Source of the DNA: Actinomycetota bacterium
GTDB lineage: Bacteria > Actinomycetota > Aquicultoria > JACQXZ01
Direction of reading: 5' to 3'
Assembly (NCBI GenBank): GCA_016208465.1
Contig: JACQXZ010000064.1
Coordinates: 1-55,217, forward strand
Length of the DNA: 55,217 bases
Shown: positions 1 to 55,217 of the stretch, in pieces
How positions within the stretch are numbered: position 1 is the stretch's first letter
Layout: each line of letters starts with the position of its first letter
Made by a program: the position numbers and the translations under genes
Notes under the pieces: generated by a model
The model's database searches: none
The model's input: the letters and a program-made list of their open reading frames with translations, nothing else
What the model was told of the DNA's origin: nothing

Positions 1-138
1 AAGATATATCACTTGACTTATACTCTATCCTCGTATTGAGGAAGTGTTTCTGAAGAGCCGTGTGAGGGAAATCCTCACGCACGGTTCTGTGAGGGGCATT
101 AAGTAACCAAATGAGGTTATAAAGGATGTCTACTCGAC
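1..138 (+). mobile_element. 3' end of a group II intron (domain V 55-87, domain VI 91-135, 3' splice site after 138); the rest lies upstream of the window
   Basis: 55-87 gagccgtgtgagggaaatcctcacgcacggttc fits the domain V consensus (AGC triad, 2-nt bulge on the 3' strand, purine-rich loop). A 3-nt linker follows. 91-135 pairs as gaggggcat/atgtct(A)ctc with bulged A132, six nt before an AC terminus, as in Ll.LtrB. Confidence 0.75.
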
Positions 139-224
139 AGCATCGGGGCTTGTCCCCGACGAAGATAGCAGTGAGACGTAAGACAATAAGTTAGGTTTTT
201 CCTCAAAGCGAGTGGGTAAATAAA

Positions 225-256
225 TTCCCCTCTAAAAAGAGGGGTGCAGGGGTGTG
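225..256. repeat. C-run/G-run hairpin repeat
   Basis: ttcccctctaaaaagaggggtgcaggggtgtg: a CCCCT/AGGGG stem followed by a second G-run. Confidence 0.7.
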
Positions 257-338
257 TAGAAATGAAAATCATCTATAATTCAGGCATCAAAGAATCATAC
301 GCAAAAGCAGGACAGGGAAGGGAAAAAACGGAGAATTA

Positions 339-1394
339 ATGAGAAGAACATCAAAACAAATAAAAATTGGTAATTTAAAAATTGGCGGGAATGAACCTAT
401 ATTGGTTCAATCAATGACAAATACGAAAACTTCGGATGTTTCAGCTACGGTTAATCAGATTAAAGAACTCGAAAAAGCAGGCTGTGAGATAGTGCGGGTG
501 GCTGTTTTAGACAAGAAATCCGCGGAAGTTCTTGGTGAAATAAAAAGGAGAATAAATATTCCATTGGTGGCTGATATTCATTTTGATTACCGTCTTGCTT
601 TAATTGCGCTGGAAAATGGAATTGATAAATTAAGAATAAATCCGGGCAACATCGGAAGTTATGAAAGAGTAAAAGCAATAGTTGAGAAAACCAAAGAAAA
701 AGAAGTTCCAATAAGAATTGGAGTAAACTCTGGGTCAGTTGCGGATAAATATATGAATCGAAGCAAAAATTTAGTTAAAGCTCTTGTTGACAGCGCTCTT
801 GATAGTATTGAAATTTTAGAAAGTCTGGGTTTTTATGATATTGTGCTTTCGGTAAAAGCTTCTTCTGTTCCAGTGACCATCGAGGCATATCAATTGCTTG
901 CTAAACAAGTTGATTATCCTTTGCACATAGGAATAACAGAAGCAGGTACGATTCTTTCAGGCACAGTTAAATCCGCAGTCGGATTAGGTGTTCTTCTTTA
1001 TGAAGGGGTAGGGGACACGATAAGAGTTTCTCTTACGGCTAATCCTGTTGAGGAAGTTAAAGTTGGATATAAAATATTAAATTCTTTAGACTTAAGAAAA
1101 CGGGGAGTAGATATAATATCTTGTCCCACTTGCGGCCGTTGCGAGATTGATTTAATTGAAATGGTAAATGAAATTGAAAAAAGACTAGAGTCTTGCGCCT
1201 ATCCATTAAAAATCGCGGTAATGGGTTGCGTGGTGAATGGACCGGGCGAAGCAAAAGAAGCAGACATTGGTGTAGCCGGAGGAAAAAAAGAAGGACTTAT
1301 TTTCGCGAAAGGCAAAACATTAAGAAAAGTTGCTCAGGAAGATATTGTTGATGTTTTGATGGCTGAAATAGAGAATAGGAAGATAGAGATTTGA
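339..1394 (+). CDS. ispG: 4-hydroxy-3-methylbut-2-en-1-yl diphosphate synthase (IspG/GcpE)
   Basis: 351-aa ORF, GcpE-like along its length; C-terminal Fe-S cysteines CPTCGRC ... GCVVNGPGE. Confidence 0.93.
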   Translation: MRRTSKQIKIGNLKIGGNEPILVQSMTNTKTSDVSATVNQIKELEKAGCEIVRVAVLDKKSAEVLGEIKRRINIPLVADIHFDYRLALIALENGIDKLRINPGNIGSYERVKAIVEKTKEKEVPIRIGVNSGSVADKYMNRSKNLVKALVDSALDSIEILESLGFYDIVLSVKASSVPVTIEAYQLLAKQVDYPLHIGITEAGTILSGTVKSAVGLGVLLYEGVGDTIRVSLTANPVEEVKVGYKILNSLDLRKRGVDIISCPTCGRCEIDLIEMVNEIEKRLESCAYPLKIAVMGCVVNGPGEAKEADIGVAGGKKEGLIFAKGKTLRKVAQEDIVDVLMAEIENRKIEI

Positions 1395-1422
1395 GATAGA
1401 GATAGATAAGGAGGAGACTTTT

Positions 1423-3126
1423 GTGCGTTTTTCTAAATTATTTGCGCCTACACTTAAAGAAGATCCGGCGGAGGCAGAAATTATAAGTCATAAACTATTG
1501 GTAAGGGCAGGCATGCTTAGAAAGGTTGCTTCTGGTATCTATTCATATCTTCCTTTAGGCTTCAAGGTTCTTAATAAAGTGATAAATATTGTCAGAGAAG
1601 AAATGGATAAAGCAGGAGCAGAAGAGCTTTTAATGTCTGCGCTTCAGCCTGCGGAGATTTGGCAAAAGAGTGGAAGGTGGGCCGAGTATGGTCCTGAGAT
1701 GATGCGGTTAAAAGACAGGGGGAACAGGGATTTTTGTCTTGGTCCTACGCATGAGGAATTAATTACAACTATTGTTATGAATGAAATGCTTTCTTATCGC
1801 CAGCTTCCGGTTACTCTTTATCAGATTCAGGTAAAATTCAGAGATGAAATAAGACCTCGTTTTGGTTTGATGCGGGGAAGAGAATTTATTATGAAGGATG
1901 CATATAGTTTTGATCTAAATGAAAAGACTCTTCAGGAATCATATAAAAAAATGCATGGCGCTTATTCGAGAATACTAGAGCGCTGCGGTCTTGAATACCG
2001 GGCGGTTGAAGCTGAATCTGGTTTAATCGGCGGTGATGTCTCGCAGGAATTTATGGTTTTGGCTGACAATGGAGAAGAGGCAATTGTCTATTGCGACAAA
2101 TGTTCATATGCGGCTAACAGGGAAGCGGCGAAAACGGCAAAAACTGAAGGCGAAAGTGATGATTTTAAACTCTTAGAAGAGGTTAATACACCAGAACGAA
2201 AAACCATAAGCGAAGTGAGCGAATTTTTAAGGATTTCTCCCAAAAATATTGTTAAAACTTTGATTTATCAGACAGAATATGGAATAAAAATTGTACTGGT
2301 TCGCGGCGACAGGGAAGTTAATCAGGAGAAATTGAACAGAGTTATTGAAACCGACAAGGTTACACTTCTCTCAAATGAGGAATTTGGTAGATATTCTGAT
2401 TTGATTCCCGGTTACAGTGGTCCGGTTGGTCTTAATAACTATGAGATTATCGGGGATAATGAGATTTTAAGTATGCGCAATTTTGTTGTTGGTGCAAATA
2501 AAAAAAATACTCATTTTGTAAACGTTAATATAGAGCGTGATTTTAAAGTTGATAAATGGGGGGATTTCGTTTTTATTAACGAAGGAGACAAGTGTCCTAG
2601 TTGCGGTGGAATTTTAAAGATTACTCGAGGGATAGAAATTGGCCATATTTTTCAATTGGGTGATAAATACAGCAAAGCGTTAAACGCAACGTTTTTAGAT
2701 GAAAATGGAGAAAGGCGTTTTTACACAATTGGTTGTTATGGGATTGGCGTGAGCCGCCTTGTTCAGGCAACCATTGAACAAAATCACGACGATAAGGGAA
2801 TTATCTGGCCGATTCCTCTTGCTCCATTTAAAGTAATAGTTATCGTTCTTAACACAAAAGACGAAGAGCAAAACACTATTGGAGAGAATATATATAATGG
2901 ATTACTAAATAAAGATGTTGAAGTGATTATTGATGATCGCGAAGAAAGCGCCGGCAAAAAATTTGCCGATGCGGATTTAATTGGTGTTCCGTATCAGATT
3001 ATTATTGGCAAAAGAACAAAGGCTGGTTCCAAAGTGGAATTGAAAACCAGAAAAGATAATCAGAAAACAGAAATACCCATTGAGGATGCAGTAGAAAAAG
3101 TTTGTTTATTGCTGAGGGCAGATTAA
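1423..3126 (+). CDS. proS: proline--tRNA ligase, bacterial type with editing insertion
   Basis: 567 aa with class II aaRS core, INS domain and C-terminal anticodon-binding domain. GTG start 8 nt after aaggagg. Confidence 0.93.
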   Translation: MRFSKLFAPTLKEDPAEAEIISHKLLVRAGMLRKVASGIYSYLPLGFKVLNKVINIVREEMDKAGAEELLMSALQPAEIWQKSGRWAEYGPEMMRLKDRGNRDFCLGPTHEELITTIVMNEMLSYRQLPVTLYQIQVKFRDEIRPRFGLMRGREFIMKDAYSFDLNEKTLQESYKKMHGAYSRILERCGLEYRAVEAESGLIGGDVSQEFMVLADNGEEAIVYCDKCSYAANREAAKTAKTEGESDDFKLLEEVNTPERKTISEVSEFLRISPKNIVKTLIYQTEYGIKIVLVRGDREVNQEKLNRVIETDKVTLLSNEEFGRYSDLIPGYSGPVGLNNYEIIGDNEILSMRNFVVGANKKNTHFVNVNIERDFKVDKWGDFVFINEGDKCPSCGGILKITRGIEIGHIFQLGDKYSKALNATFLDENGERRFYTIGCYGIGVSRLVQATIEQNHDDKGIIWPIPLAPFKVIVIVLNTKDEEQNTIGENIYNGLLNKDVEVIIDDREESAGKKFADADLIGVPYQIIIGKRTKAGSKVELKTRKDNQKTEIPIEDAVEKVCLLLRAD

Positions 3127-3130
3127 TGCA

Positions 3131-3170
3131 TTCCCCTCTCCCCTTGTGGGAGAGGGTCAGGGTGAGGGGT
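3131..3170. repeat. C-run/G-run hairpin repeat in the proS-GT2 spacer
   Basis: ttcccctctccccttgtgggagagggtcagggtgaggggt. Its 3' G-run doubles as the RBS of the next gene. Confidence 0.7.
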
Positions 3171-3175: not shown

Positions 3176-3829
3176 ATGAGTTTAAGTAATTCGGAAAAGA
3201 TTGCTGTTATAATTCCAGCTCTTAACGAAGAAGAAAGAATTGAGTCGGTTTTAGATATTGTGACTAATCTTTCCTTGATTGATGAAGTTATTGTGGTTGA
3301 TGATGGTTCAATCGATAATACTTCGGAGATTGTAAAGAAAAATCCACGGGTTAAATTAATCAGTCATTCGGAAAATAAGGGTAAAGGCGGGGCGATAGCA
3401 ACCGGAATAAATTCAACAAACGCTGAAATCCTTGTTTTTATCGACGCTGATTTAATTGGTTTAACTGAAGAGCATCTTAGGGATTTAATTGAACCTGTTT
3501 TGGAAGATAAAAACCTGATGATGACCATAGGGAAGTTTGAGAGTGGTCGTTTAAGAACTGATTTGGCTCAAAAGATAAGCCCTTTTCTTTCAGGTCAAAG
3601 AGTAATTCGCCGGGAATTTTTAAATGGAATAGGGAATTTTGAGTCCTCTGGTTTTGGTGTTGAAATATATTTCACAAAACACGCGAAAGATTTGAGGCTA
3701 AAAACAAAGGAAATAAGATTGAGCAATATTAGCCATGTTATGAAAGAAGAAAAACTTGGATTTAAAGATGGCGTTATAGCTCGTCTGAATATGTATAAGG
3801 ATATTTTTAGCGTAAGACGTAAGGCGTAG
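3176..3829 (+). CDS. family 2 (GT-A) glycosyltransferase
   Basis: AVIIPALNEE...VVDDGSIDNT...FIDADL motifs. The last codons and the stop lie in a GCGTAAG-type repeat. Confidence 0.8.
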   Translation: MSLSNSEKIAVIIPALNEEERIESVLDIVTNLSLIDEVIVVDDGSIDNTSEIVKKNPRVKLISHSENKGKGGAIATGINSTNAEILVFIDADLIGLTEEHLRDLIEPVLEDKNLMMTIGKFESGRLRTDLAQKISPFLSGQRVIRREFLNGIGNFESSGFGVEIYFTKHAKDLRLKTKEIRLSNISHVMKEEKLGFKDGVIARLNMYKDIFSVRRKA

Positions 3830-3936
3830 ATTAGAATACAGAAAACAGAATACAGAAAGAAACTCTTGTTTGTCATTGCGAGCGACCAGAGGGAGCGTGG
3901 CAATCTCTTAAGATTCTTCACTTCGTTCAGAATGAC
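3810..3936. repeat. cluster of three repeat words (GCGTAAGACG, CAGAATACAGAA, GTCATTGCGAG hairpin)
   Basis: agcgtaagacgtaaggcgtag / tagaatacagaaaacagaatacagaaag / gtcattgcgagcgacc...cttcgttcagaatgac. Confidence 0.8.
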
Positions 3937-4438: not shown

Positions 4439-4640
4439 AATCTCTTTTGGGTTCAATTCCCCGCAGCTTGCTGAGCGTCGTAGGAATTGCTTTATGTTTC
4501 TTGTTGTTGGAATTCAGTAGTCAGTAGTCAGTAGTCAGAATTCAGAAAAATACTAACCCCTATATTTCTATTTGTATTTCTTCTGTCTCCTGTATTCTGA
4601 ATACCTGATACCTCGCAGCTTGCTGCGAGGTAGTTCATTA
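4439..4640 (+). repeat. composite repeat Element A, copy 1 (~200 bp)
   Basis: Collinear with 41954-42152. Shared ends: aatctctt.tgggttcaattccccgc.gcttgc and gatacctcgcagcttgct.cgaggtagttcatta. Internal cagtagtcag and ctgtattctg runs. Confidence 0.85.
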
Positions 4641-4790
4641 GCTACTTGAATTTTGCATTATAATTTTTTCATTTTGATATGTATTTTTAAGTTCCTTCGC
4701 TTCGCTCGAGGACAAGTTTTATCTTTTATTTTTGATTTAGTCTCTGTTTTTAAACATTGTAATTTGAGATTTGTAATTTGTAATTTTCGG
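4641..4790. repeat. rearranged AT-rich composite repeat (shares arms with Element C)
   Basis: cttgaattttgcattataattttttcattttgatatgtattttt and aagttccttcgcttcgctcgaggacaagtttt (reverse complement of the word at 16868-16898). Confidence 0.7.
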
Positions 4791-6779: not shown

Positions 6780-6852
6780 GTCACAAAGTCACAAGACACA
6801 AGTAGGGTCCCGATAGAATCGGGGCAAACGCAGACCTAAAGGTTTACCCTAC
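6780..6852. repeat. GTCACAAG-word solo arm plus a tagggt...accctac hairpin, downstream of nusA
   Basis: gtcacaaagtcacaagacacaag, then tagggtcccgatagaatcggggc...ggtttaccctac. Confidence 0.7.
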
Positions 6853-6873
6853 AAGTGCGTTGGAGATGTTATT

Positions 6874-7176: not shown

Positions 7177-7179
7177 AAT

Positions 7180-8946
7180 ATGGCGAAAATGAGGGTGTAT
7201 GAGCTTGCAAAGCAAGTGGGGATTGTAAGCACAGAACTAATTAAAAATCTGAATAAATTAAATATTGAAGTTAAGAATCATCTTAGCGTAATTGAGGCTG
7301 AGGACGTTGAGAGATTTTTAAACAGTATAAAAAAAAAAAAAAAAGATTCAAAAATCACCGAGAAAGAACCAGAAGCTCCTTTTTCTCACGAATAAAAACC
7401 TGAAGAAAAAGATTCAACCGAAAAAGAAGCTCCAACTGAAAAAGTAGAAAAAACTATCTCCCCGGCAATAGAATTCAAAGAAGGTCTAACAGTTAAAGAA
7501 TTTGCTCAGATTGTAAATAAACCTTCGACTGATATCATAAAGAAGCTTATTGCGTTAGGTGAAATGCTTACAATTAATCAGTCAATGAGCAATGAAGCGA
7601 TTAAGGTTTTAGCTGAAGAACTAGGGTTTGAAGCAAATAGGGCAAGGGGAGCCAAACTTACGGATATCGCAATTTTGGTTGTTGCCGCGGATGATGGTGT
7701 AATGCCTCAGACCATTGAGGCAATTGATCATGCGCTGGCCGCTAAAGTACCGATTCTGGTTGCGATTAATAAAATTGATAAACCGGGCGCAAACCCTGAC
7801 AAAGTGAAAAAAGAACTAGCTGAACAAAATCTTGCTCCAGAAGAATGGGGTGGAGAGACGGTTTTTGTTTCTGTTTCGGCAAAACAAAAAATTAACATTG
7901 ATGAACTTCTGGAAATGATAATTTTGGTTGCGGAACTACAGGAATTAAAAGCAAATCCAAATTGTTTGGCGAGCGGAATAACCATTGAAGCAAAGCTGGA
8001 TAAAGGAAGAGGTCCTGTGGCGACCGTTTTAGTTCAGCGTGGAACTTTGAAGATTGGCGATGCTATAGTGGCTGGATTTTCTTCTGGAAAAGTCCGCGCT
8101 ATGTATGACGACACAGGCAGGAATGTTTTTGAAGCTACTCCGTCCCAGCCGGTTGAGGTTCTTGGTTTTTCAAGTGTTCCTCAGGCAAGCGATTCTGTAA
8201 AAGTAGTTAGAAATGAACGCGAGGCTAAACAAATTGTAGAGGAAAGAATCATTAAGAAAAAATTGTCTGAGCGAAAAACAATTTCCAGCCATGTGACTCT
8301 TGATGATTTATTTAATAAGATTAAGGAAGGAGAAATTCAAGACCTTAACCTTGTAATAAAGGGCGATGTTCAGGGATCTGTTGAAGCGCTGGAGGAGTCT
8401 CTTTTAAAACTAGATCAAAGTGAAGTAAAAATAAATATCATTCATAAAGGCGTGGGTGCGATATCTGAAACAGATGTTATGCTTGCGGCGGCTTCCAATG
8501 CAATTATTATTGGGTTTAATGTAAGACCAGACAGCAAAGCTCGCGAGATGGCTGTAAAAGAAAATGTTGATATGAGAATGTATAGGGTAATTTACAAGGT
8601 TGTTGAAGATATTAATGCGGCAAGGATTGGTATGTTAAAACCTGAATTTGAAGAAGTTGAACGAGGCAGAGCTGAAATTAGAGAAGTTTTTAAGGTTCCG
8701 AAGATAGGATTTATTGCAGGTGTTTTTGTAACCGAAGGTGAGATAAAGCGCAATGATCAGGTGAGATTGGTGAGAGACGGTGTTGTGATTTATGAAGGAA
8801 CAATTTCTTCGCTGAGAAGATTTAAAGATGATGTTGGTTCTGTTAAAGAGGGTTTTGAGTGTGGTATTGGGTTAGAAGATTTTCAGGATGTTAAGGCTGG
8901 AGATGTAATAGAGGCATTTATTTTGAAAGAAAAAGCAAGGGTTTAA
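7180..8946 (+). pseudogene. infB: translation initiation factor IF-2, interrupted by an in-frame TAA (7393-7395) and lacking the G1-G3 GTPase motifs
   Basis: 7180-7392, 7396-7563 and 7564-8946 are all in one frame. Domains present: IF2_N (KEFAQIVNKPSTDIIKKL), G4 NKID, G5 SAK, domains II-C2. No GHVDHGKT or DTPGH: the sequence runs EELGFEAN directly into RARGAKLTDIAILVVAADDG. Confidence 0.85.
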
Positions 8947-9255: not shown

Positions 9256-9265
9256 GAAGTTGAAA

Positions 9266-9335
9266 AGTCACAAGGACACAAAGTCACAAAGACACAAGTG
9301 AAGAAACTTGTGACCTGTGACTTGCAACTTTTTGT
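9266..9335 (+). terminator. GTCACAAG-word hairpin with T-tract (terminator-like)
   Basis: aagtcacaaggacacaaagtcacaaagacacaag ... cttgtgacctgtgacttg, then caacttttt. Confidence 0.6.
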
Positions 9336-9706: not shown

Positions 9707-10577
9707 ATGGCGAGAAAAAAATCTGATTTCAATTTGATAGTCGATTTGATAAAAAAAGATGATAAATTTGTAATTTTAACGCATGTTCAACCCGACGGAG
9801 ATGCGTTTGGATCTGTTTTAGGATTAGCAATGCTGCTCAAAAAAATGGGTAAAAATGTTTTTTTGAGCATCGACAAAGATATGAGAATCCCTCCCCAATA
9901 TTCATTTTTACCCGGAGTAGAATTAATTAAATCGATAAATGATTACCATAATGATTTTGTGAATTTTATTGTTTTGGATTGCGGCAGTATTGAACGATTA
10001 GGTTCATGGGAACAAATTGCGAAAAATGCTAAAAATATTATTAATATAGATCATCACAAAAGCAATACAAGGTTTGGAACATTAAACTACATTGATGAAA
10101 AAAGTTCTTCGTCTTCTGAGATGGTATACAAATTGAGTTTAAATCTTGGTGTGGAAATAGATAAAGATATTGCGCTTTGCTTGTATGTCGGCATTGTAAC
10201 CGATACAGGAAAATTCCAATACAGCAACACAACGTCTAAAACATTTAAGAATGCTTTAAAGTTGATTAAATATGATATTTCACCAACTTATGTATTTGAA
10301 AATGTTTACGAAAGAGCTTCCTTGGGATGTCTGAATCTTTTGGGAAAAATTTTAAATAGCGCCAGATTTCTTAAAGATGCCTAATGGAGCAATAAAGGTA
10401 AGTCTTCGTTCGAAAGATGCATTTGGTGTTGATGAAATTGCTGTTAGATTTGGAGGCGGCGGTCATAGAAACGCGGCTGGTTATAATTCATATGAAGATA
10501 TAGACAAAACAGTTGAGTTATTGAGAAATGCAATTAAAGATGTTGGTAAGTCGGAGAGTGAAAGATTTAGGACTTAG
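9707..10577 (+). pseudogene. nrnA: DHH/DHHA1 phosphoesterase (NrnA-like), split into two frames with the inter-domain segment missing
   Basis: DHH motifs (DGDAFGS, IDHHKSN) lie in 9707-10384. The DHHA1 end (IKVSLRSK...GGGGHRNAAG) lies in a different frame at 10377-10577. The combined length is about 45 aa short. Confidence 0.75.
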
Positions 10578-10599
10578 GACATCGGACTTAGGACTTAAA

Positions 10600-11310
10600 A
10601 TGGATGGAATTCTAATTATTAACAAACCTTCTGGTATAACCTCACACGATGTTGTTTTGAAATTAAGAAGGATATTGGGGCAAAGAAAAATAGGGCATGC
10701 TGGAACACTTGATCCAATCGCAACAGGAGTTTTAGTTTTATGTATAGGAAAAGCCACGAAAATTACTCAATTTTTACAGAGTGATGATAAAGAATATGAG
10801 GGAGAAATAATTTTTGGTATCAGAACAAATACAGGTGATATAACAGGAAAAATTGTTGAAGAAAAAGATTGTTCTGACATAAAGGAAGCAGATATAAAAC
10901 AGGTATTCAATAATTTTATTGGAGAGTCACTTCAGACACCGCCTGCTTTCTCCGCAATAAGCGTTAACGGCGAAAGACTCTATAAATTAGCTCGTCGCGG
11001 AGTGAAAGTTGATTTAGAACCAAGGAAGATAAAAATATATAACTTGAGAATGCTTAATATCTCAAGAGACAATATGATTGTTTCATTTAGGGTTAAGTGT
11101 TCAAAAGGAACGTATATTCGTTCGCTTTGTGAAGATGTTGGCAAGTCATTGGGGTGTGTTGCTTCTTTAAAATCATTGAAGCGGATTTCTTCGGGCAATT
11201 TTCATATAAAAGATTCTTTTAACTTAGAAGAAGTAGAAGAATTTGTTAAAAACGGAACTATTGAGGAAAAGGTTTTATCGATGAGCGAAGGTTTGGCGGA
11301 ACGACAGTAG
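10600..11310 (+). CDS. truB: tRNA pseudouridine(55) synthase TruB, apparently lacking the C-terminal PUA domain
   Basis: GHAGTLDPIATGVL catalytic motif. ATG 10600; the track start 10528 lies in a repeat. The ORF ends where repeat DNA begins. Confidence 0.85.
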   Translation: MDGILIINKPSGITSHDVVLKLRRILGQRKIGHAGTLDPIATGVLVLCIGKATKITQFLQSDDKEYEGEIIFGIRTNTGDITGKIVEEKDCSDIKEADIKQVFNNFIGESLQTPPAFSAISVNGERLYKLARRGVKVDLEPRKIKIYNLRMLNISRDNMIVSFRVKCSKGTYIRSLCEDVGKSLGCVASLKSLKRISSGNFHIKDSFNLEEVEEFVKNGTIEEKVLSMSEGLAERQ

Positions 11311-11401
11311 ACAGAGAAGTTAGGAAGACATTAGGCGCTTACAATTCAAATTCGTGTAATTTCTGGCAAAGTATATGAGGTAAGCACCAATTAACAATTA
11401 T

Positions 11402-11613
11402 CAAATAACAAACAAATTCCAATTAAGGAAAATTCAAAATCCGAAACTGACAGCCATGCTGTCATTCTGAGCGAAGCGAAGAATCTTCAAAAACATCTCT
11501 CTATGAGATCCTTCGTCGCAAGCTCCTCAGGATGACATTTCATGTCAGTTTCGATCATTTAAATATTGGAAATTGGAGCTTATTTGTTATTTGGATATTG
11601 AGATTTGGAATTT
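11402..11613. repeat. composite palindromic Element B, copy 1
   Basis: The 104-nt core 11447-11550 differs from 22480-22583 at only 4 positions. The outer arms (caaataacaaacaaattccaat / attggaaattggagcttatttgttatttgg) are mutually complementary. Confidence 0.88.
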
Positions 11614-11679
11614 TTGACTTTTGGTTCCGATTCATTCGGGTTAGGAAGATTGGAAGATGAGAAGATAGGATGATAAAAA

Positions 11680-12640: not shown

Positions 12641-12700
12641 AGAATCGGGTCAGGAGACCCGATTCTATCCTCGGATAGGGTCAGGTCTCCTGACCTGTCC
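12641..12700. repeat. two adjacent REP-like hairpins
   Basis: agaatcgggtc-agga-gacccgattct (11-bp perfect stem), then ggtcagg-tctc-ctgacc. Confidence 0.75.
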
Positions 12701-13140: not shown

Positions 13141-13187
13141 GGTCACAAGTCACAAGGCACAAGTAAGGCAAGGCTTTAGTCTTGCTA
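13141..13187. repeat. GTCACAAG solo arm plus a small hairpin, downstream of rpsO
   Basis: ggtcacaagtcacaaggcacaag, then gcaaggctttagtcttgc. Confidence 0.65.
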
Positions 13188-13276
13188 AAAATTAGAAGCT
13201 TTAATGTAAATGAAAAGTGATAACCAATGACTTTAACGTCATTGGTTGCTATATATTTAGGAGGCAAAAATTTAAT

Positions 13277-16779: not shown

Positions 16780-16819
16780 GCGACTCCGATTAATCGGGAT
16801 CGAATTGTAAACTGGAGAT

Positions 16820-17128
16820 TTATAAATAACAAATTTCAAGCACCAAATAAGTTTAAAATCAAAAATAAAACTTGTCCTGAGCAAAGCGAAGGAACTTAAA
16901 ATGACAAGTTAAAATTCAAAGATGAATGCTAAACATATAGGTCTTAGGTCAAAGGTTTGAGGTCTAAAGGAGAAATTCCTAAAACGATCTTATTGATCAC
17001 TTGAATCTTGCATTATAATTTTTTCGTTTTGATATGTATTTTTTATCTTTTATTTTTGATTTTTTTCATATTCGAACATTGGAGCTTATTTGGGATTTGG
17101 ATATTGTTGTTTGAAATTTTTGATTTTT
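16820..17128 (+). repeat. composite nested-palindrome Element C, copy 1 (~310 bp)
   Basis: Concentric arms: acaaatttcaagcaccaaata...cattggagcttatttggg outside, aaaatcaaaaataaaa...gatatgtattttttatcttttatttttgattt inside, with core ataggtcttaggtcaaagg. It is the reverse-complement relative of 43570-43880. Confidence 0.8.
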
Positions 17129-17169
17129 ATCTAGTTCGGTCTTGAAATAAAATAAAGGAATGATAAATT

Positions 17170-17949: not shown

Positions 17950-17998
17950 TAATTTAAAAAAAATCGTGGGTAGAAAAAACTTTAAGTTTGAGGTTAAT

Positions 17999-18093
17999 GG
18001 GCTATAGGCAAGAGGCGATAGGTCGTAGGGGCTAGATTGAAAGTTTAAACTATTCATCCTTATTGCCGCTGACCCCTAGCCTCTCGCCCCTTT
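17999..18093. repeat. GGCTA-AGGCAAGAGGCGATAGG word hairpin
   Basis: gggctataggcaagaggcgataggtcgtaggggctag ... gctgacccctagcctctcgcccc. Confidence 0.7.
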
Positions 18094-18150: not shown

Positions 18151-18288
18151 AGAGTCACAAGTCACAGGTCACAGGTGAAGAAAAATAAGAGAAAAAAGTT
18201 GAAATCTATAACTTGTGACTTTGTGACCTATAACTTGTGACTTTGTGACCTATAACTTGTGACTTTGTGACCTATAACTTGTGACTTT
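18151..18288. repeat. GTCACAAG-word hairpin whose right arm is a perfect 22-nt tandem array (3.8 copies, 18206-18288)
   Basis: Left arm agagtcacaagtcacaggtcacagg. Right arm ctataacttgtgactttgtgac x3 plus ctataacttgtgacttt. Confidence 0.9.
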
Positions 18289-19220: not shown

Positions 19221-19353
19221 GGCGTAAGGTGTGAGGCGTAAGGCAGGTTATAGGCGATGGGTAATAGGGAATAAAGTCCGAAGCTCTAAGTCGCGAATAT
19301 GAATAGCCAAGACTGGAAGTTTCGGCTATACACGTCTTACACCTTACGTATTT
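19218..19353. repeat. GCGTAAGG-word long hairpin between dapA and rnj
   Basis: taaggcgtaaggtgtgaggcgtaaggc ... tacacgtcttacaccttacgta, then tttt. Confidence 0.75.
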
Positions 19354-21034: not shown

Positions 21035-21092
21035 GGACAGAATACAGAATACAGAAAGTCTGACTTCTGGCACCTGTCTTCTGTGCTCTGAT
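21035..21092. repeat. CAGAATACAGAA-word hairpin downstream of rnj
   Basis: ggacagaatacagaatacagaaag ... cttctggcacctgtcttctgtgctctg. Confidence 0.7.
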
Positions 21093-22409: not shown

Positions 22410-22414
22410 AGTGT

Positions 22415-34462: not shown

Positions 34463-34550
34463 AATGTATTGACTCTCCCTTAAGGGAAGACCTTATTCTT
34501 ATAACTGAAGATTGATTTTTGTTAGACTATATAAGGAGGAACGCGGAATT

Positions 34551-35162: not shown

Positions 35163-35259
35163 AAATCAAAATGCAAAAATCAAAAGTCAAAATTACAAAT
35201 CAAAATTTAAATATAAAGAGTTTTGCCTGTAAGAAACAGAGAGGGAATTAAAAACAGTA

Positions 35260-36199: not shown

Positions 36200-36236
36200 T
36201 AGGACAGGCGAGACGCCTATCCTACTGATACTTTTT
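36200..36236 (+). terminator. REP-like hairpin with T-tract downstream of the radical SAM gene
   Basis: taggacaggcg-aga-cgcctatccta, then ctgatacttttt. Confidence 0.4.
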
Positions 36237-38011: not shown

Positions 38012-38127
38012 AAACGTAAAGCGTAAGACGTGAGACGTGAGACGTGATTAAATCCCCCTTTTCCAAAGGGGGACAAAGGGGGATTTAGAATTAAATCCCT
38101 CCCAACCTCCCTTTAAAAAGGGAGGAG
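38012..38127. repeat. GCGTAAGACGTGAGACG word followed by two C-run/G-run hairpins
   Basis: aaacgtaaagcgtaagacgtgagacgtgagacgtg; aaatcccccttttccaaagggggacaaagggggattt; aaatccctcccaacctccctttaaaaagggaggag. Confidence 0.8.
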
Positions 38128-38165
38128 TATAAACTCTTGCGATTTTTAAGACAGGATGTAATTTA

Positions 38166-39339: not shown

Positions 39340-39600
39340 ATGGAAACACTAAAGGTCTCTTCAAAATCGAACCCTAATTCAGTCGCAGGAGCAATTGCAG
39401 GAGTTTTGAGAGAAAAGGGGGCAGTAGAGATTCAGGTTGTAGGAGCAGGCGCGCTAAATCAGGCAATTAAAGCTATAGCAATTGCGAGAGGATTTGTTGC
39501 TCCCACAGGAATAAATTTAGTATGTATTCCTTCTTTTGCAGATATTCAGATTGATGGGGAAGAAAGAACTGCTATTAGATTAGCAGTTGAACCGCGTTAA
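39340..39600 (+). CDS. spoVS: SpoVS family protein
   Basis: 86 aa, LKVSSKSNPNSVAGAIAGVLRE...AIKAIAIARG signature. Confidence 0.92.
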   Translation: METLKVSSKSNPNSVAGAIAGVLREKGAVEIQVVGAGALNQAIKAIAIARGFVAPTGINLVCIPSFADIQIDGEERTAIRLAVEPR

Positions 39601-39672
39601 AAAGTCACAAGTCACAAGGACACAAGTCACAAGTAAAAAATTAACCTGTGACTTGTAACCTGTGACTTTTTA
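39601..39672 (+). terminator. GTCACAAG-word hairpin with T-tract downstream of spoVS
   Basis: aaagtcacaagtcacaaggacacaagtcacaag ... acctgtgacttgtaacctgtgac, then ttttt. Confidence 0.6.
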
Positions 39673-39691
39673 ATTTCAACTTATTGGTAGT

Positions 39692-41953: not shown

Positions 41954-42152
41954 TAATCTCTTCTTGGGTTCAATTCCCCGCGGCTTGCCGCGTAAGAATT
42001 GTTTTATGTTTCTTGTTGTTGGAATTCAGTAGTCAGTAGTCAGAAGACACCAATCGCTATATTTTTTATTTGTATTTCTTCTGTATTCTGTATTCTGTAT
42101 TCTGTATTCTGAATACCCGATACCTCGCAGCTTGCTACGAGGTAGTTCATTA
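41954..42152 (+). repeat. composite repeat Element A, copy 2
   Basis: Collinear with 4439-4640. It begins 4 nt after the miaA... rather, the miaB stop, and its 3' end creates the spurious N-terminal extension of the next ORF. Confidence 0.85.
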
Positions 42153-42167
42153 AGAAAGGATATTCCT

Positions 42168-43559: not shown

Positions 43560-43569
43560 GTTGTAGGCT

Positions 43570-43880
43570 TAACAACGTCCAAATTCCAAACAAGCTCCAA
43601 ATTACAGTGTTTAAGATGAAAAAAATTAAAAATAAAAGATAAAAAATCAAAAATACATATCAAAATGAAAAAATTATAACTCAGGAGTCAGATGGACAAA
43701 TAGTATTATAGGTTATTTTAGGGATTTTACTCTTAAACCTCAGTTCTTTGACCTAAGACCTATAATGAATCCAAGCCATTTTCGTGTTCGTTTTTGAACT
43801 TTAAATTGTCATTTTAATATTTGATTTTTTATTTTTGACTTTAAAGCTTATCTGGCGCTTGGAATTTAGAGTTTATCTCG
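43570..43880 (-). repeat. composite nested-palindrome Element C, copy 2 (inverted relative to copy 1)
   Basis: The reverse complement contains ataggtcttaggtcaaaga...ataattttttcattttgatatgtattttt, matching 16937-17050. The outer arms are ccaaattccaaacaagctccaaatt / cttggaatttagagtttat. Confidence 0.8.
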
Positions 43881-43970: not shown

Positions 43971-44831
43971 TTGGAGCTTGCAAAAACTCTGGATGGGGAA
44001 ATAGTTTCTGCTGATTCGATGCAGGTTTACAAAAGATTAGACATAGGAACCGCCAAACCAACAGATTTTGAGCAAGCGCGGGTAAAACATCATCTTATTG
44101 ATTTATTTGATCTTAAAGAGGATTTTAGCGTTGCCATATATCAAAAAATGGCAAGAGCCGCGATAGAAGCAATTTATTCAAAAAACAAAGCGCCTTTACT
44201 GGTTGGAGGCTCTGGCCTTTACATGAGAGCAGTGATAGATAAATTTTCGTTTCCCGAGGGTAGTTTAGCTTCTGATGTGAGAATTGAACTTGAAACAAGA
44301 AGCAAACAGGTTTCACCTCAGCTTTTATATGATGAATTATCCAGATTAGATAAGACCTCAGCCGAAAAAATCCATCCTCACAATATAAAAAGGATTATTC
44401 GTGCCTTGGAAGTGATATATTTAACCGGCAGGCCGTTTTCCGAATTTCAAAAGAACTGGAAGGAAAGAGAATCAATCTATAATCTTAAAATGTTTGGCTT
44501 GTTTTTAGAGAGAGATAAATTATATGAAAGGATAAATTTAAGAGTAGATGAAATGTTTAAGAAAGGTTTGCTGGAAGAAACAAAAAGGCTTGTTAATGAG
44601 GGATATAAGGATGTTTTGATTTCAAAACAGGTATTAGGGTATACTCAGATTCTGGATTATCTTGATAAAAAATGTTCTTTTGATGAAATGGTTAATTTAA
44701 TTAAGCAAAAAACCAGAAATTTTGCCAAAAGACAGATGACATGGTTTGAGGCAGATCCAAGAATAAAATGGATTGATGCGGATAAGGAGAAATTTGTTGA
44801 ATTGATGCTGGAGGAAATAAAGAATGGTTAG
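43971..44831 (+). CDS. miaA: tRNA dimethylallyltransferase MiaA; the true start must lie upstream of the first canonical start codon
   Basis: DSMQVYKRLDIGTAKP. The P-loop IVGPTAVGKS is encoded in frame at 43932-43961, upstream of TTG 43971. The frame is open from 43899. Confidence 0.88.
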   Translation: MELAKTLDGEIVSADSMQVYKRLDIGTAKPTDFEQARVKHHLIDLFDLKEDFSVAIYQKMARAAIEAIYSKNKAPLLVGGSGLYMRAVIDKFSFPEGSLASDVRIELETRSKQVSPQLLYDELSRLDKTSAEKIHPHNIKRIIRALEVIYLTGRPFSEFQKNWKERESIYNLKMFGLFLERDKLYERINLRVDEMFKKGLLEETKRLVNEGYKDVLISKQVLGYTQILDYLDKKCSFDEMVNLIKQKTRNFAKRQMTWFEADPRIKWIDADKEKFVELMLEEIKNG

Positions 44832-45496
44832 TTTTTCAAAATATCAGGGAATAGGTAATGATTTTATTATTTTTAATAATCTGGATAAGACAATAAAGCC
44901 CGAAGAAGCATCTATTGTAAAATTATGCGACAGGCATTTTGGAATAGGGGCAGATGGCGTGATTTTTCTGGAATCATCAGAAAACGCTGATTTTGAAATG
45001 GTTTTCTTTAATAGAGATGGGAGCCGGGCGGAGATGTGCGGAAATGGGATTAGATGTCTGGCGGCTTATATGCGCGATAACAACTTGATTTCCAATTAAC
45101 ACAGGAGATACGACTTTAAGGGCTACCTGTCTTTCGATGGGGAATCCTCATTGTGTAATTTTTGTTGAGGATATAAAAAACGTTCCCATTCTAAGATATG
45201 GTCCGTTAATTGAAAATTTATCAACATTCCCCCGAAAAACAAATGTGGAGTTTGTTGAAGTAAAAAATAAAACAGAAATTAATCTTCGTGTTTGGGAGAG
45301 AGGAGCAGGAGAAACTTTAGCCTGTGGAACAGGCGCCTGCGCTTCAGTAGTCGCGGCAAACAGGAATGGTTTAACCGAAAGGAAAGTTCTTGTCCATTTA
45401 AAAGGAGGAGATCTGGAGATTGATTGGCTGAAAAGCGGCGATGTATATATGACTGGTCCTGCGGTTAATGTTTTTAATGGAGAGGTAGATTTTTAG
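44824..45496 (+). pseudogene. dapF: diaminopimelate epimerase, frameshifted and missing about 45 central residues
   Basis: The N-terminal half (GNDFIIF...CGNGIRC) ends at TAA 45097-45099. The C-terminal half (SMGNPHCV...ACGTGACA) is in another frame. The two halves total about 210 aa, against about 275 aa for a typical DapF. Confidence 0.8.
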
Positions 45497-45507: not shown

Positions 45508-45600
45508 TGCCTCCCCCATAAGCCCCCTTAATTCCCCCCTTACCAAGGGGGGACACAGAGGGGTTAAAAGGGGGCAGCGAGCAGAGCGAGCGGGGGATTT
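45508..45600. repeat. cluster of C-run/G-run repeats downstream of dapF
   Basis: gcctcccccataagcccccttaattccccccttaccaaggggggacacagaggggttaaaagggggcagcgagcagagcgagcgggggattt. Confidence 0.75.
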
Positions 45601-45666
45601 TTTGGGAGCAGCAAATTTGAGTTTTCAATTCAAATGCAATAAAGGAGACTTTAAAATAAGCAATAG

Positions 45667-47101: not shown

Positions 47102-47134
47102 GGTCACAAAGTCACAAGGACACAAGTCACAAGT
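47102..47134. repeat. GTCACAAG-word solo arm
   Basis: ggtcacaaagtcacaaggacacaagtcacaagt. Confidence 0.7.
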
Positions 47135-51710: not shown

Positions 51711-52457
51711 ATGTTTGCCAGAGAAGAATCTGTTACTTTTTTAATAGCATTTACCGGCGGATTGTTTTCTTTTTTTACTCCCTGCATTTTTCCTTTAATT
51801 CCTTCCTTTTTTTCTTTTTTAATGGGAAAGACGAATCCAGAGGAAATAAAAGCAGAAAGATTTAAACTGGTAATTCATTCTCTTTTATTTATAGCGGGTT
51901 TTTCGGTAATTTTTATTGTATACGGAGCCACAGCATCGGTTCTCGGTTCTTTTTTCGCTAAAAATCGTTTGGTTTTTAGTTATTTTGGCGGAACAGTTGT
52001 TATAATTTTTGCTTTACATATCTTAGGTATTATAAAAATACCGTTTTTGGAGTATGAGACACATATACTAATTCCCCCTTTAGGAAAGGGGGAGAAGGGG
52101 GGATTTGGAAAAATAAAAAGAAAGGGGCTTATAGGTTCTTTTGTTGTAGGGATGGCTTTTGCTGCCGGGTGGGTACCCTGCGTAGGTCCCATTTTGTCTT
52201 CTATTTTATTGTATACAGCCGCTACAGCTACTTTACAAAAGGGAATAATCTATCTGGTTTTTTATAGTTTAGGATTGGGCGTTCCGTTTTTGCTAAGCGC
52301 GCTTCTTCTTGATTTTATCATTAATAAAACCCATAAACTTAACCGTTTTCTTAAATATTCATCCAAAATAGGAGGAGTATTTCTTTTAATAGTTGGAACT
52401 TTGATTCTTACCAACAACCTGACTGTTTTAGTTTCATTTTTATATAAATTCTTTTAA
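51711..52457 (+). CDS. ccdA: cytochrome c biogenesis / thiol-disulfide transporter CcdA (DsbD family) with a 12-aa repeat-derived insertion
   Basis: FTPCIFPLIP and AAGWVPCVGPIL Cys motifs. Residues IPPLGKGEKGGF (52071-52106) are encoded by a C-run/G-run repeat. Confidence 0.88.
   Translation: MFAREESVTFLIAFTGGLFSFFTPCIFPLIPSFFSFLMGKTNPEEIKAERFKLVIHSLLFIAGFSVIFIVYGATASVLGSFFAKNRLVFSYFGGTVVIIFALHILGIIKIPFLEYETHILIPPLGKGEKGGFGKIKRKGLIGSFVVGMAFAAGWVPCVGPILSSILLYTAATATLQKGIIYLVFYSLGLGVPFLLSALLLDFIINKTHKLNRFLKYSSKIGGVFLLIVGTLILTNNLTVLVSFLYKFF
52070..52106. repeat. C-run/G-run repeat inserted in frame inside ccdA
   Basis: aattccccctttaggaaagggggagaaggggggattt, closely similar to the intergenic copy at 38049-38087. 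Confidence 0.8.
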
Positions 52458-53267: not shown

Positions 53268-53393
53268 TCGTCATTGCGAGTTACCAACCCCGCCTACGGC
53301 TGGGTAAGTCAGGGAACGAACCTTTTCGTCATCGCGAAGGAGCGGAGCGACTGCGGCGATCTCTTGAGATTGCTTCACTTTGTTCGCAATGAC
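53268..53393. repeat. GTCATTGCGAG-family REP-like units directly upstream of the HUH transposase gene
   Basis: tcgtcattgcgag..., then tcgtcatcgcgaaggagcggagcgactgcggcgatctcttgagattgcttcactttgttcgcaatgacg. Same family as 3872-3936. Confidence 0.8.
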
Positions 53394-53409
53394 GGTTCGT
53401 TATGAATCG

Positions 53410-53431
53410 GGGGTCAGGTCTTGCTTTGCCA
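53410..53431. repeat. left inverted repeat flanking the HUH transposase gene
   Basis: ggggtcaggtcttgctttgcca; its exact reverse complement is at 54321-54342. Confidence 0.9.
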
Positions 53432-53457: not shown

Positions 53458-54318
53458 ATGGCTAGACCACTTAGAATAGAATTTGAAAACGCATTTTACC
53501 ATATTACTTCCAGAGGAAATGCTGGTAATAACATATTTTTAAAAAAAGAAGACTTTAAAGATTTTCTGGAAATTCTTGAGTCAGTTATTGATCGCTATAG
53601 TTGGATGTGTCACGCATACTCTTTAATGGATAATCATTATCATTTATTAATTGAAACCCCAAAAGCAAACCTATCCCTTGGTATGAGACAGCTAAATGGA
53701 GTATATACCCAATCATTTAACAGAAGACATAAAAGCTACGGACATATATTTCAGGGAAGATTCAAAGCAATACTAATAGATAAACAAGCATATCTATTGG
53801 AGCTAAGCAGATATATAGTTCTAAATCCCGTAAGAGCAAAGATAGTATCTGACCCAAAAGATTATGAGTGGAGCAGCTACTCAGTAACAGCAGGAATAGT
53901 TAAACAGCCATCCCTTTTAGAAAAATCTTACATACTTTCACAGTTTGGAAAAAACATTAAAAAAGCAAAACAGCGTTATATTCAGTTTGTATATGATGGA
54001 ATAAATAAAGAATCACCCTGGATCCTTTTGAGAAACCAGTTTATTCTCGGCGATGATGATTTTATTGATGAGCATAAAAGTAAACTGAAAGAAAAGGTAA
54101 AAGACGGCGAAATTCCTATACTCCAACGTCGATCAGCAATGCCAACACTTAATGAAATTTTTAAACACAAAGAATTATCAGATAAAGTAAAAAAAGATCA
54201 AATGATTTATTCTGCTTTTAAACATGGTTATAAATTAAACGAAATAAGCTCATTTTTAAACATCCATTATTCAACGGCAAGCAGGGCAGTAAAAAGAGCG
54301 GAAAGACGGAAGGATTAA
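53458..54318 (+). mobile_element. Y1 HUH (IS200-like / REP-associated tyrosine transposase-like) protein with a C-terminal HTH
   Basis: HUH motif NHYHLLIE and Tyr region RYIVLNPVRA...YEWSSY. C-terminal HTH-like GYKLNEISSFLNIHYSTASRAVKR. Flanked by perfect 22-bp inverted repeats. Confidence 0.8.
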
Positions 54319-54320
54319 TA

Positions 54321-54342
54321 TGGCAAAGCAAGACCTGACCCC
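54321..54342. repeat. right inverted repeat flanking the HUH transposase gene
   Basis: tggcaaagcaagacctgacccc, starting 3 nt after the stop codon. Confidence 0.9.
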
Positions 54343-54433
54343 TTATGCTTATGCTCAACGCTTCGCGGTCTGTTGAAAATCCCCGCTTGACCAAATTCAC
54401 GGTATGATATATAGTAATACCAGGAGGTGGGCC

Positions 54434-54676
54434 ATGAATAAGAGTAAAATTGCAATCACCCTAGATCAAAACATCATCGAACGTTTAGATCGACTGATTA
54501 AGAAGCATCTTTTTACAAACCGCAGCAGGGCAATTCAGGAAGCTGTACAGGAAAAGCTGGAACGGATGGAGCGTAGTCGTTTAGCGAAAGAGTGTGCTAA
54601 GCTCGACCCGGCTTTCGAAAAGGCAATGGCTGAAGAAGGTTTGTCTGAGGAGTTGAGTGAATGGCCCGAATATTGA
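54434..54676 (+). CDS. ribbon-helix-helix (CopG/MazE-like) antitoxin
   Basis: [18 protein letters not shown] start. ATG 54434 is 6 nt after aggagg; overlaps the toxin gene by 16 nt. Confidence 0.75.
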
Positions 54677-54999
54677 GGAGTGAAATTCGTTGGGCTGATT
54701 TAAATCCTGTGCGAGGTCATGAGCAAGCAGGTCTAAGGCCAGTTTTAATTTTAAGTCAGGATGTTTTTAATGAACGCTCAGGTACGGTTATAGCAATGGC
54801 AATTACAAGTCAACCTCAAAGAGCAGGCTTCCCGCTGACTCTGGAGCTAAAATCAAAAAACTTACCAAAACGTTCATGGATCAAGATTAGCCAGATTAGA
54901 ACACTTTCCGTAGAAAGGATTGGTAAAAAGATAGGCCTAGCGTCTCCAGAGGAATTAATTCAAGTTATCGAAGGTTTAGGTGAAATAATCGGAACCTAA
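54661..54999 (+). CDS. mazF: MazF/PemK family endoribonuclease toxin
   Basis: [29 protein letters not shown]...ITS signature; 112 aa. Confidence 0.88.
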
Positions 55000-55060
55000 C
55001 TAATAGGAATTTCCTTTTTGATGAAATTCCTATAATTGCAAAATATAAAATGGGTAATTC

Positions 55061-55216
55061 TTATTCATGATAATTAGCTGGAGCAACAATAAAATTTTTA
55101 ATCATTCCCAAATCATTAATTTTAAGATGCAGTCTAAACCCAAAAAATGTTTGCCCAAACCATTTACCATAACTTGCAGATCTCTTAAACAATTTGGTCT
55201 GGTTAGCTCGAACAAA
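55061..55216 (-). mobile_element. fragment of a DDE transposase (IS982/IS4-like), truncated and running off the window
   Basis: The minus-strand frame reads FVRANQTKLFKRSASYGKWFGQTFFGFRLHLKINDLGMIKNFIVAPANYHE then stop. The GWFFGFKLHL..N..G motif is typical of IS982-type transposases, but the ORF ends far too early. Confidence 0.45.
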
Positions 55217-55217
55217 C

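Follow-up and report, generated by a model that had tools for sequence, protein, structure and literature searches.

Tandem heptamer hairpins, REP-like units and nested palindromes in the operon spacers of an uncultured low-GC lineage

We analysed contig JACQXZ010000064.1 over its full 55,217 nt (hereafter, the window), focusing on the short palindromic and tandem repeats that lie between its genes. The window has a G+C content of 36-37% and a strongly positive GC skew, and almost all of its genes are on the plus strand. It carries conserved housekeeping operons (ispG, proS, rimP-nusA-ylxR-infB-rbfA-nrnA-truB-ribF-rpsO-pnp-pepM16-dapB-dapA-rnj-uppP-ftsK), further genes miaB, pgsA, cinA and recA as well as rny, miaA, dapF and lexA, a BglII-like restriction-modification pair, a Y1 transposase and a RHH/MazF toxin-antitoxin pair. 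Its PNPase has no close genome in the species-representative genome collection, where the best match is 58% identical. The closest proteins come from metagenome contigs (79-85% identity), and metagenome-assembled genomes (MAGs) of Actinomycetota type match at ~60-68%, Ca. Subteraquimicrobiales, Ca. Oleimmundimicrobium and Ca. Aquicultor among them. Because these are its nearest proteins, we place the host near the Actinomycetota: judged by protein similarity, it is an uncultured low-GC lineage related to that phylum.

Heptamer arrays and short palindromes

An initial annotation had described recurrent short words in the spacers. The words are present within 0-10 nt of where it had put them, although two patterns with single wildcards have no exact match as written and the copy at 15458 is a weak relative. 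They are far above chance in the window: GTCACAAG occurs 15 times against 0.75 expected, always in a spacer, CAGAATACAG 8 times against 0.05, GGTCAGG 12 times against 2.3 (~5-fold), and the unit GAGCRAAGCGAAGRAAY, allowing up to 3 mismatches, 10 times against 1.4. The GCGAAGC mini-hairpin alone is not enriched (5 copies, 3.95 expected). What the annotation missed is a unifying point: most of the words are units of tandem heptamers. Under a strict definition, arrays of period 7 make up 4.0% of intergenic and 0.1% of coding DNA, while periods 4-6 and 8-12 have essentially zero coverage. Dozens of period-7 arrays are returned by Tandem Repeats Finder, and the autocorrelation of the pooled spacers has peaks at lags 7, 14 and 21, whereas coding DNA shows period 3 only. 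Degenerate heptamer arrays (CAAATAA..., AAAATCA...) also make up the long A/C-rich and G/T-rich arms of the large palindromes, and the GGC-rich words are GG-phased heptamers.

Scored against mononucleotide shuffles, the spacers have a mean folding z of -2.4, with 20 of 39 below -2; for length-matched coding controls the mean is -0.3, with 3 of 39 below -2. Folding and within-window comparison bear out the description of mostly palindromic, concentrically nested modules reused in different combinations, but its extent was overstated. Sequence common to another spacer is found in 22 of the 39 spacers (33% of spacer nucleotides) rather than in almost every one, and two zones, 28.8-36.1 kb and 47.6-52.4 kb, are repeat-poor. 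Long nested hairpins do exist, with four spacers predicted to fold as nested hairpins of 230-320 nt: 11385-11625, 16815-17135, 43565-43875 and 22410-22640, the last with a minimum free energy structure of one long hairpin pairing both ends of 231 nt (-72 kcal/mol). The repeats do hug stop codons, as proposed: in ~16 of 22 repeat-bearing spacers the first repeat begins at most 8 nt from the upstream stop codon. Confinement to spacers has an exception at 52070, where a copy lies in frame inside a gene. At gathering and E-value thresholds, Rfam detects only a group II intron 3' end and no family that accounts for the repeats, in agreement with the annotation; matches to whalefall-1 (E = 0.17) and to a miRNA (E = 0.11) were dismissed as chance. 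The literature, looked up by repeat sequence strings, yielded nothing relevant.

In the usual layout, an array closely follows a stop codon and its inverse complement lies some tens of nt downstream, often with a T-run behind it. The arrays and hairpins in this paragraph and the next are on the plus strand. At 9264-9330 a GTCACAA-type array is paired with an inverted CTTGTGAC/CTGTGAC arm, and a T-run comes after the hairpin. In the dapA leader (18154-18288), a hairpin pairs GTCACAA x3.3 with a perfect 22-nt x3.8 array at 18206-18288 (CTATAACTTGTGACTTTGTGAC), which shows that tandem expansion by slippage was recent. Over the dapA stop codon lies a GTAAGGC/GTGTGAG heptamer hairpin (19217-19349), its interior ~80 nt longer than that of the ortholog in the related contig L081, and 3 nt past the rnj stop codon an ACAGAAT x2.9 hairpin (21037-21092), built of a different heptamer in L081. 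At 39598-39673 a GTCACAA hairpin with a 22-nt arm, 91% complementary, reaches z = -11 and is again followed by a T-run. A further hairpin at 17997-18090 pairs the GG-phased heptamers GGCTATA GGCAAGA GGCGATA GGTCGTA with CCCCTAGCCTCTCGCCCC.

Other arrays are half-sites, listed without an inverted partner: GTCACAA/GACACAA at 6780-6858, 0 nt past the nusA stop codon and followed by a GTAGGGT...ACCCTAC hairpin; TTAGGAC x4.4 at the nrnA/truB junction (10567-10597); GTCACAA x3.3 at 13142-13185, 2 nt past the rpsO stop codon, with a small hairpin (absent in the relative L089); and a GTCACAA-type array at 47103-47134. The 26 nt at 47109-47134 are 100% identical to 39609-39634, irregular 7/8-nt spacing included, and the identity of this imperfect block speaks for copying rather than independent slippage. 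GCGTAAG/ACGTAAG arrays at 3807-3857 supply the stop codon of a GT2 gene and are followed by AGAATAC x3.6, an AAAATCA array of the type that forms the left arm of the AT-rich palindromes overlaps the end of the upstream gene at 35156-35211, and a GCGTAAG/CGTGAGA x3.7 array opens the stretch at 38013-38131, which continues with two C5/G5-type palindromes.

A second family consists of units resembling repetitive extragenic palindromic (REP) sequences, hairpins of 25-28 nt with the form GTCATT(CT/GC)GAGCGAAGCGAAG(A/C)AATC. The stem starts with AT (ATTCT...AGAAT, ATTGC...GCAAT) and runs for 5 bp, followed by an interrupted inner GCGAAGC hairpin, and the tails are CTT or CTC. Four head-to-head dimers are present, at 3872-3936 (GTCATTGCGAG... 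/ ...TTCAGAATGAC), 11461-11536, 22494-22569 and 53328-53393, and two singlets lie inside AT-rich arms (4689-4716, 16871-16897). TGTC tags are found at 3870, 11459 and 22492 and CGTC at 53268, 53326 and 53393 (reverse strand). The CGTC-tagged units, a singlet and the dimer at 53328-53393, occupy 53270-53393 upstream of the transposase gene. In orientation, the units divide into three plus and three minus.

Palindromes of C5/G5 type start at 225, 3131, 38050, 45509 and 52070. The one at 45509-45610 is a cluster, and the copy inside a gene (52070-52106, plus strand) is a unit AATTCCCCCTTTAGGAAAGGGGGAGAAGGGGGGATTT that adds a PPLGKGGEGGD-like loop to a DsbD_TM (ccdA-like) open reading frame (ORF). 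GC-rich palindromes with GGTCAGG or GGACAG lie at 12641, 27427, 27460 and 36200. At 12641-12697 the palindrome is double and contains GGGTCAGGTCT, the core of the transposase inverted repeat; 27427-27479 holds two (GGACAGCCGAGACGGCTGTTC and GGTCAGGCGTCCCGCCTGAC), and TAGGACAGGCGAGACGCCTATCCTA at 36200-36224 is related to the one at 27427.

Composite palindromes and the Y1 transposase

The largest modules are AT-rich palindromes of 130-320 nt with arms of degenerate heptamers. A basic one without nested insert occupies 25358-25492, after GG-phased heptamers at 25331-25357; its relatives have additional units. Another right arm (4644-4790, plus strand) is split at 4689-4716 by a 28-nt REP-like singlet (AAGTTCCTTCGCTTCGCTCGAGGACAAG) and followed by TTGTAAT x4.3. 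This arm adjoins the first of two D elements, both on the plus strand: copy 1 (4439-4640) comprises a T-arm-like GGGTTCAATTCCCC, TCAGTAG x3.6 paired with CTGTATTCTG and a CGCAGCTTGCTGCG palindrome, copy 2 (41955-42160) has TTCTGTA x4.7, and the 4439-4640 region is 80% identical to 41955-42131. Both open with TTGGGTTCAATTCCCCGC, which resembles a tRNA T-arm (4439-4475, 41965-41995). ARAGORN finds no tRNA at the D elements, and their start may be what is left of an attachment site derived from a tRNA.

Two composites of type B are almost the same element at unlinked sites: one at 11388-11622, with outer CAAATAA-type heptamer arms around a TGTC-tagged REP-like dimer (11461-11536), the other (22410-22640) forming the whole uppP-ftsK spacer; 11388-11600 and 22421-22633 are 90% identical over 214 nt. 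Type X composites lie at 16815-17135 and, in the opposite orientation, at 43565-43875. The former is four-layered, with outer arms that type B also has, then AT-rich arms of heptamers, an inserted 27-nt REP-like singlet (16871-16897) and an inner hairpin of GGTCTTA/GGTCAAA heptamers. Types B and X have outer arms of 27-30 nt in common and wholly different interiors. The 27-28 nt unit interrupts the right arm at 4689-4716 and, inverted, the left arm at 16871-16897, whereas three other copies of each AT-rich arm are uninterrupted, so that filled and empty sites can be compared.

One alternative is that the concentric symmetry was made in place, through template switching in quasi-palindromes and heptamer slippage, with hairpins growing outward. 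Such a process would fit the heptamer periodicity of even the long arms, the unbalanced copy numbers of paired arms, the perfect recent expansion at the dapA leader and the way the arms of orthologous hairpins change together (see below). It gives no account of 214-nt copies that are 90% identical, loops included, at unlinked loci, nor of opposite-orientation copies or the same units in other phyla. We give it little credence as the explanation of the nesting; it may add to insertion rather than replace it. Taken together, the comparisons within and between genomes show that units have been copied, inserted into others, tandemly expanded, gained lineage-specifically and distributed across phyla. 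The AT-rich and composite palindromes also share traits with miniature inverted-repeat transposable elements (MITEs), namely terminal inverted repeats, small size, no coding capacity and several dispersed copies; no cognate insertion sequence with the same terminal inverted repeats is present in the window.

The window does encode one enzyme of mobile DNA, a Y1 (HUH) transposase of 286 aa (53458-54318, plus strand), like REP-associated tyrosine transposases (RAYTs), as the initial annotation had it, and like TIR-associated tyrosine transposases (TIRYTs). It contains HYH and RYIVLNP (RYIxxNP) motifs and matches Pfam Y1_Tnp at E = 1.3e-12; against NCBIfam REP_Tyr_transpos (NF047646) it scores 76.8 bits, just short of the RAYT cutoff of 80. 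The gene lies between perfect 22-nt inverted repeats that start with GGGGTCAG, the left one GGGGGTCAGGTCTTGCTTTGCCA (53409-53431, plus strand), the right one its 100% complement (54321-54342, minus strand). TIRtrons are described as having inverted repeats with a GGGGWSAS motif (PMC3733652), and the left repeat fits this motif. The homologs number thousands at least, with 52-62% identity among the matches listed and many on ~1 kb contigs, and four further homolog loci (L085-L088) have conserved the flanking GGGGTCAGGTCTTG inverted repeats. By these features, the transposase with its GGGGTCAG inverted repeats is a TIRtron: like TIRtron/TIRYT and RAYT systems it combines a Y1 HUH enzyme with HYH and RYIxxNP, long GGGGWSAS inverted repeats and, elsewhere in the window, a few solo relatives of the inverted repeat. 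It differs from RAYT and TIRYT enzymes in its score under the RAYT cutoff, in a ~140-aa C-terminal extension and in the lack of GTAG-tagged REPs.

The repeats had been proposed as substrates of this enzyme, and in the strong form of that idea all palindromic modules would be REPIN-like (resembling REP doublets that form hairpins). The perfect inverted repeats around the gene, the ~5-fold enrichment of GGTCAGG together with its presence in palindromes at 12648-12695 and 27460, and the CGTC-tagged units immediately upstream of the gene are all compatible with it. The resemblance to the inverted repeats, though, extends to GGTCAGG palindromes at 3-4 spacer sites only. The abundant families have no such relationship: no sequence is shared between the GGGGTCAGGTCTTG repeats and the heptamer arrays, the AT-rich arms or the TGTC-tagged units, the four homologous loci retain their inverted repeats with no GTCATTGCGAG-type unit, and 179 viral-contig loci, 120 of them with the TGTC unit, contain no homolog of the transposase. 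For CGTC-tagged REPs, Di Nocera, De Gregorio and Rocco (2013) also found no dedicated transposase (PMC3733652). We therefore regard the strong form as very improbable.

Toxin-antitoxin genes follow the transposase gene in three loci: RHH and MazF in the window (54404-54999), PemK in L087 (2002-2325), and PIN/MazE with PIN/VapB in L085 (1848-3130). In L088, from another phylum, the right inverted repeat is followed immediately by CCTATT x5 and related tandem repeats of 9-13 nt (10879-10995), and five heptamer arrays lie at gene junctions.

Relatives and other phyla

For comparison we used relatives (L081, L089 and L090) from two other samples (SRR22388171 via Logan; 3300038466 via JGI) with 79-85% protein identity, and a more distant MAG, L082, with 68% DapA identity. 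In L082 the spacers of dapB-dapA-rnj-uppP-ftsK measure 32, 30, 11 and 2 nt and are without repeats; in the window, where a CBS-domain gene is additionally present between rnj and uppP, the corresponding spacers are 389, 148, 77, 33 and 228 nt. The three close relatives carry heptamer hairpins in orthologous spacers, with other heptamers: GGATTCA replaces the window's 300-nt composite, and ACGTGAA/GCGTAAA replaces CAGAATA after rnj. Upstream of pnp (...TATATATTTAG|GAGG...), the window site is empty, L089 has a 157-nt heptamer hairpin and L090 another insert, AT-rich, whose right end is the same. The dapA-leader hairpin is found at one and the same position in three genomes, with a conserved promoter-like site (TTGAAT-17-TATTAT) upstream of it and with arms GTCACAA/TTGTGAC, ATTACAA/TTGTAAT and GGTCACAAG/CCTGTGACT, both of which change in concert.

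That the repeat-filled spacers could be assembly chimeras had been raised with the annotation. Broken infB, nrnA and dapF genes hint at an error-prone assembly: infB is interrupted at an A16 homopolymer (7329-7344; gene region 7177-7563), nrnA has a frameshift near 10384 (10380-10527) with its GGGH motif in a different frame, and dapF (44824-45496) has 37 nt in place of ~60 central residues (model positions 90-151). These lesions look like frameshifts or an internal deletion and may be sequencing errors or pseudogenes. Independent assemblies (SRR22388171 and 3300038466) agree with the window in gene order and have heptamer hairpins of like kind at orthologous spacers; since they share the architecture, an assembly artefact is excluded, and a chimeric origin is scarcely credible. 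Nor is any of the three genes broken at a repeat, against the suggestion, made from the truncated genes, that the repeats are recombination hotspots. The contigs of the close relatives are 3.6-5.3 kb long, and those of L081 and L090 terminate inside repeat arrays; such repeats break short-read assemblies. They also give rise to spurious ORFs and to start codons called in the wrong place: as assigned mechanically, the ORF starts for truB (10528-10600) and for a LigB/AMMECR1 gene (42132-42160) extend into repeat arrays, and the true starts are probably ~10601 (MDGILIINKPSG) and after 42160, respectively.

Three other features of the contig were noted. Immediately upstream of pnp, a hairpin AACCAATGACTTTAACGTCATTGGTT (13222-13247) that belongs to none of the repeat families is conserved in the 79% relative (L089, ~430-455); it may represent a true leader or processing structure of pnp. 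The contig opens with a group II intron 3' end, domains V-VI (53-138, plus strand; Rfam RF00029, 58.4 bits), and a GGGGCTTGTCCCC hairpin and a GTGAGAC/GTAAGAC heptamer stretch lie downstream. Finally, 29919-34511 is a repeat-free island that encodes a DNA methylase, the BglII-like endonuclease and three ORFs without Pfam match. Its GC of 0.415, little GC skew and freedom from repeats fit an acquisition that was probably recent.

Beyond the lineage, period-7 arrays average 0.39 nt/kb in 80 unrelated PNPase control loci (1.34 Mb), against 5.9 in the window, and 11 of the 80 have some. A Chloroflexi MAG (12.7 nt/kb) and a 58%-GC MAG (6.1) match or exceed the window, and a Syntrophaceae MAG comes near (4.8). 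The 58%-GC MAG contains two hairpin elements with AGAATAT/AGAATAC-array arms as in the window and different cargo; a Deltaproteobacteria MAG has a palindrome with window-like outer arms. The outer-arm pattern has 0 matches in viral contigs. More than 120 IMG/VR contigs, their GC ranging from 0.35 to 0.71, contain the 21-nt core of the TGTC-tagged unit (GTCATTSYGAGCRAAGCGAAG), often as dimers and sometimes beside heptamer arrays or a C5/G5 unit, and the consensus of 134 copies reads ...GCAATCCa. Period-7 arrays in these contigs are 5-fold over the control loci.

This excess hints that heptamer hairpins, TGTC-tagged REP-like units and C5/G5 palindromes could be a co-travelling cross-phylum set, spread and nested by one shared mechanism for which 7-nt periodic arms would be the recognised or produced feature. 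The same module adjacencies, recurring across contigs of unrelated GC, point the same way. We consider this idea speculative and unlikely; if it were true, this contig would be an unusually dense natural test bed.

Two other candidates for wider kinship were set aside. CAGAATA arrays in 59 IMG/VR viral contigs (L211-L269) were rejected as kin of the window hairpins: most share one flank (...TAACGCGTTAGTAACAGAGC-CAGAATACAGAATA..., upstream) and none has an inverted partner. They may be iteron-like repeats. Two related JGI contigs from another organism with 45-48% GC (L083, 2279-2331; L084, 1078-1130) contain a 28-nt exact match to the AT-rich right arm that extends over ~50 nt at 86-89% identity, beside TTTTCGTG repeats. 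In the metagenome scan for this AT-rich module no other locus of a different organism matched; the match may be chance or a shared element and was not used as evidence of transfer.

Origin of the spacer repeats

Each layer of the architecture corresponds to a described kind of repeat, at variance with the view that it goes beyond known types. The canonical short tandemly repeated repetitive (STRR) units of heterocystous cyanobacteria are CCCCAGT, TTGGTCA and CAACAGT. Like STRRs and the heptameric simple sequence repeats of Xanthomonas and Nostoc, the window arrays are 7-bp tandem units restricted to intergenic DNA, in many cases as inverted pairs able to fold into hairpins in operons, with length and sequence varying between close relatives. 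Unlike STRRs, they consist of other heptamers, many families of them in 55 kb, in a non-cyanobacterial low-GC host, and the arms of the long palindromes are heptamer-periodic too. In filamentous cyanobacteria, 7-bp STRR hairpins lie between operon genes and a role in transcript stability was proposed (PMC2670836); heptameric repeats are over-represented in the intergenic DNA of several bacteria and variable between close relatives (PMC4692102).

For the REP-like units, the nearest described counterparts are CGTC/TGTC-tagged REPs, with AT-starting stems of 8-9 bp, a loop of 4-5 nt, a CCA tail and head-to-head dimers, which lie downstream of genes in several phyla and may carry CCTC as a variant tag; REP dimers nested inside long palindromes are also described, in Anabaena (PMC3733652). 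The window units share the unpaired TGTC/CGTC tag, the AT stem start, the mostly head-to-head arrangement, the position downstream of genes, the spread over several phyla and the rarity of a flanking transposase gene, and the IMG/VR consensus ends in CCA. They differ in the 5-bp stem with interrupted GCGAAGC mini-hairpin, the CTT/CTC tails and a host phylum outside the five listed; the ATTGCGAGCGAAGCGAAGCAAT unit was compared with the four published CGTC families by description only (PMC3733652).

The nesting, too, has a parallel. Units of 21-28 nt are involved in both cases, and the window sequences and host differ from those of the Nostoc/Anabaena small dispersed repeats (SDRs) and MITEs, with mobility in the window deduced from a handful of filled and empty sites. 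In Nostoc and Anabaena, mobile SDR units of 21-28 nt reportedly sit inside heptamer arrays and larger palindromes (Elhai et al. 2008, Zhou et al. 2008), and Nezha-type MITEs are said to have inserted in operons of these genera without disrupting them. On these likenesses, what the window holds, in a new lineage, is a dense mosaic of repeat kinds already known, not a new class of element.

We think it probable that several families of small, selfish or near-neutral non-coding repeats live side by side in the spacers, having accumulated in operon spacers that were tiny ancestrally. Whole units are copied to new sites in either orientation, and small units insert into larger ones and so give the onion-like nesting. 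Arrays grow and change by slippage, and slippage, possibly with arm-to-arm template switching, would keep the arms complementary. Selection would accept an insertion nowhere but between a stop codon and the ribosome-binding site that follows; the repeats may hug stop codons because this was the only permissive position in ancestral operon spacers of 2-30 nt. Once in place, the hairpins could incidentally act as 3'-end barriers, exonuclease barriers or leaky terminators on polycistronic mRNAs. Several points weigh against this reading. Only 55 kb of the genome is in view for copy numbers that would be genome-wide, and we infer the mobility of the repeats from comparisons. No transposase can be assigned to the heptamer hairpins, AT-rich palindromes or TGTC-tagged units. 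No sharp element ends could be defined, and there was no clear sign of target-site duplication, except for a possible TAG where L089 has its insertion. The dapA-leader hairpin, with arms changed together at one site, would also fit selection for structure.

The last point leads to an alternative at the RNA level, in which the hairpins are selected elements (terminators or attenuators, 3'-exonuclease barriers, 5' stabilisers) that set the relative expression of operon genes, the heptamer arms easing the formation of register-tolerant stems. A terminator or RNA-stabiliser role, as the annotation suggested, is plausible for the predicted hairpins: they lie on the sense strand right after stop codons, many end in TTTT(A)A, the dapA-leader position is kept in three genomes, the window encodes PNPase, RNase J and RNase Y, and the cyanobacterial STRR precedent for transcript stabilisation is on record (PMC2670836). 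Yet summed fold energies on the two strands are near equal (-952 vs -904 kcal/mol), strand asymmetry of folding, taken as a test of RNA-level selection, gives no consistent signal and no consistent G-U asymmetry, and composites and REP-like units occur in both orientations. The relative L082 is wholly without repeats, unrelated phyla and contexts hold these modules too, one copy sits inside a gene, and full termination after each gene of an essential operon would harm. A consensus promoter and terminator scan was uninformative, hairpins with long loops being outside its model. Because of the near-equal fold energies on both strands and the units in both orientations, we would rank selfish spread at the DNA level above a selected RNA function, which we consider rather unlikely as the reason for the repeats.

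With the window, an uncultured low-GC lineage related to Actinomycetota joins the known hosts of STRR-type heptamer hairpins, CGTC-type REPs and TIRtrons. Comparison of relatives at 68-85% protein identity also makes it a small, self-contained example from which the insertion, nesting and slippage of mini-repeats are directly legible. With a 25-nt TGTC-tagged unit present in contigs of 35-71% GC, the old question of what mobilises CGTC-type REPs stays open.

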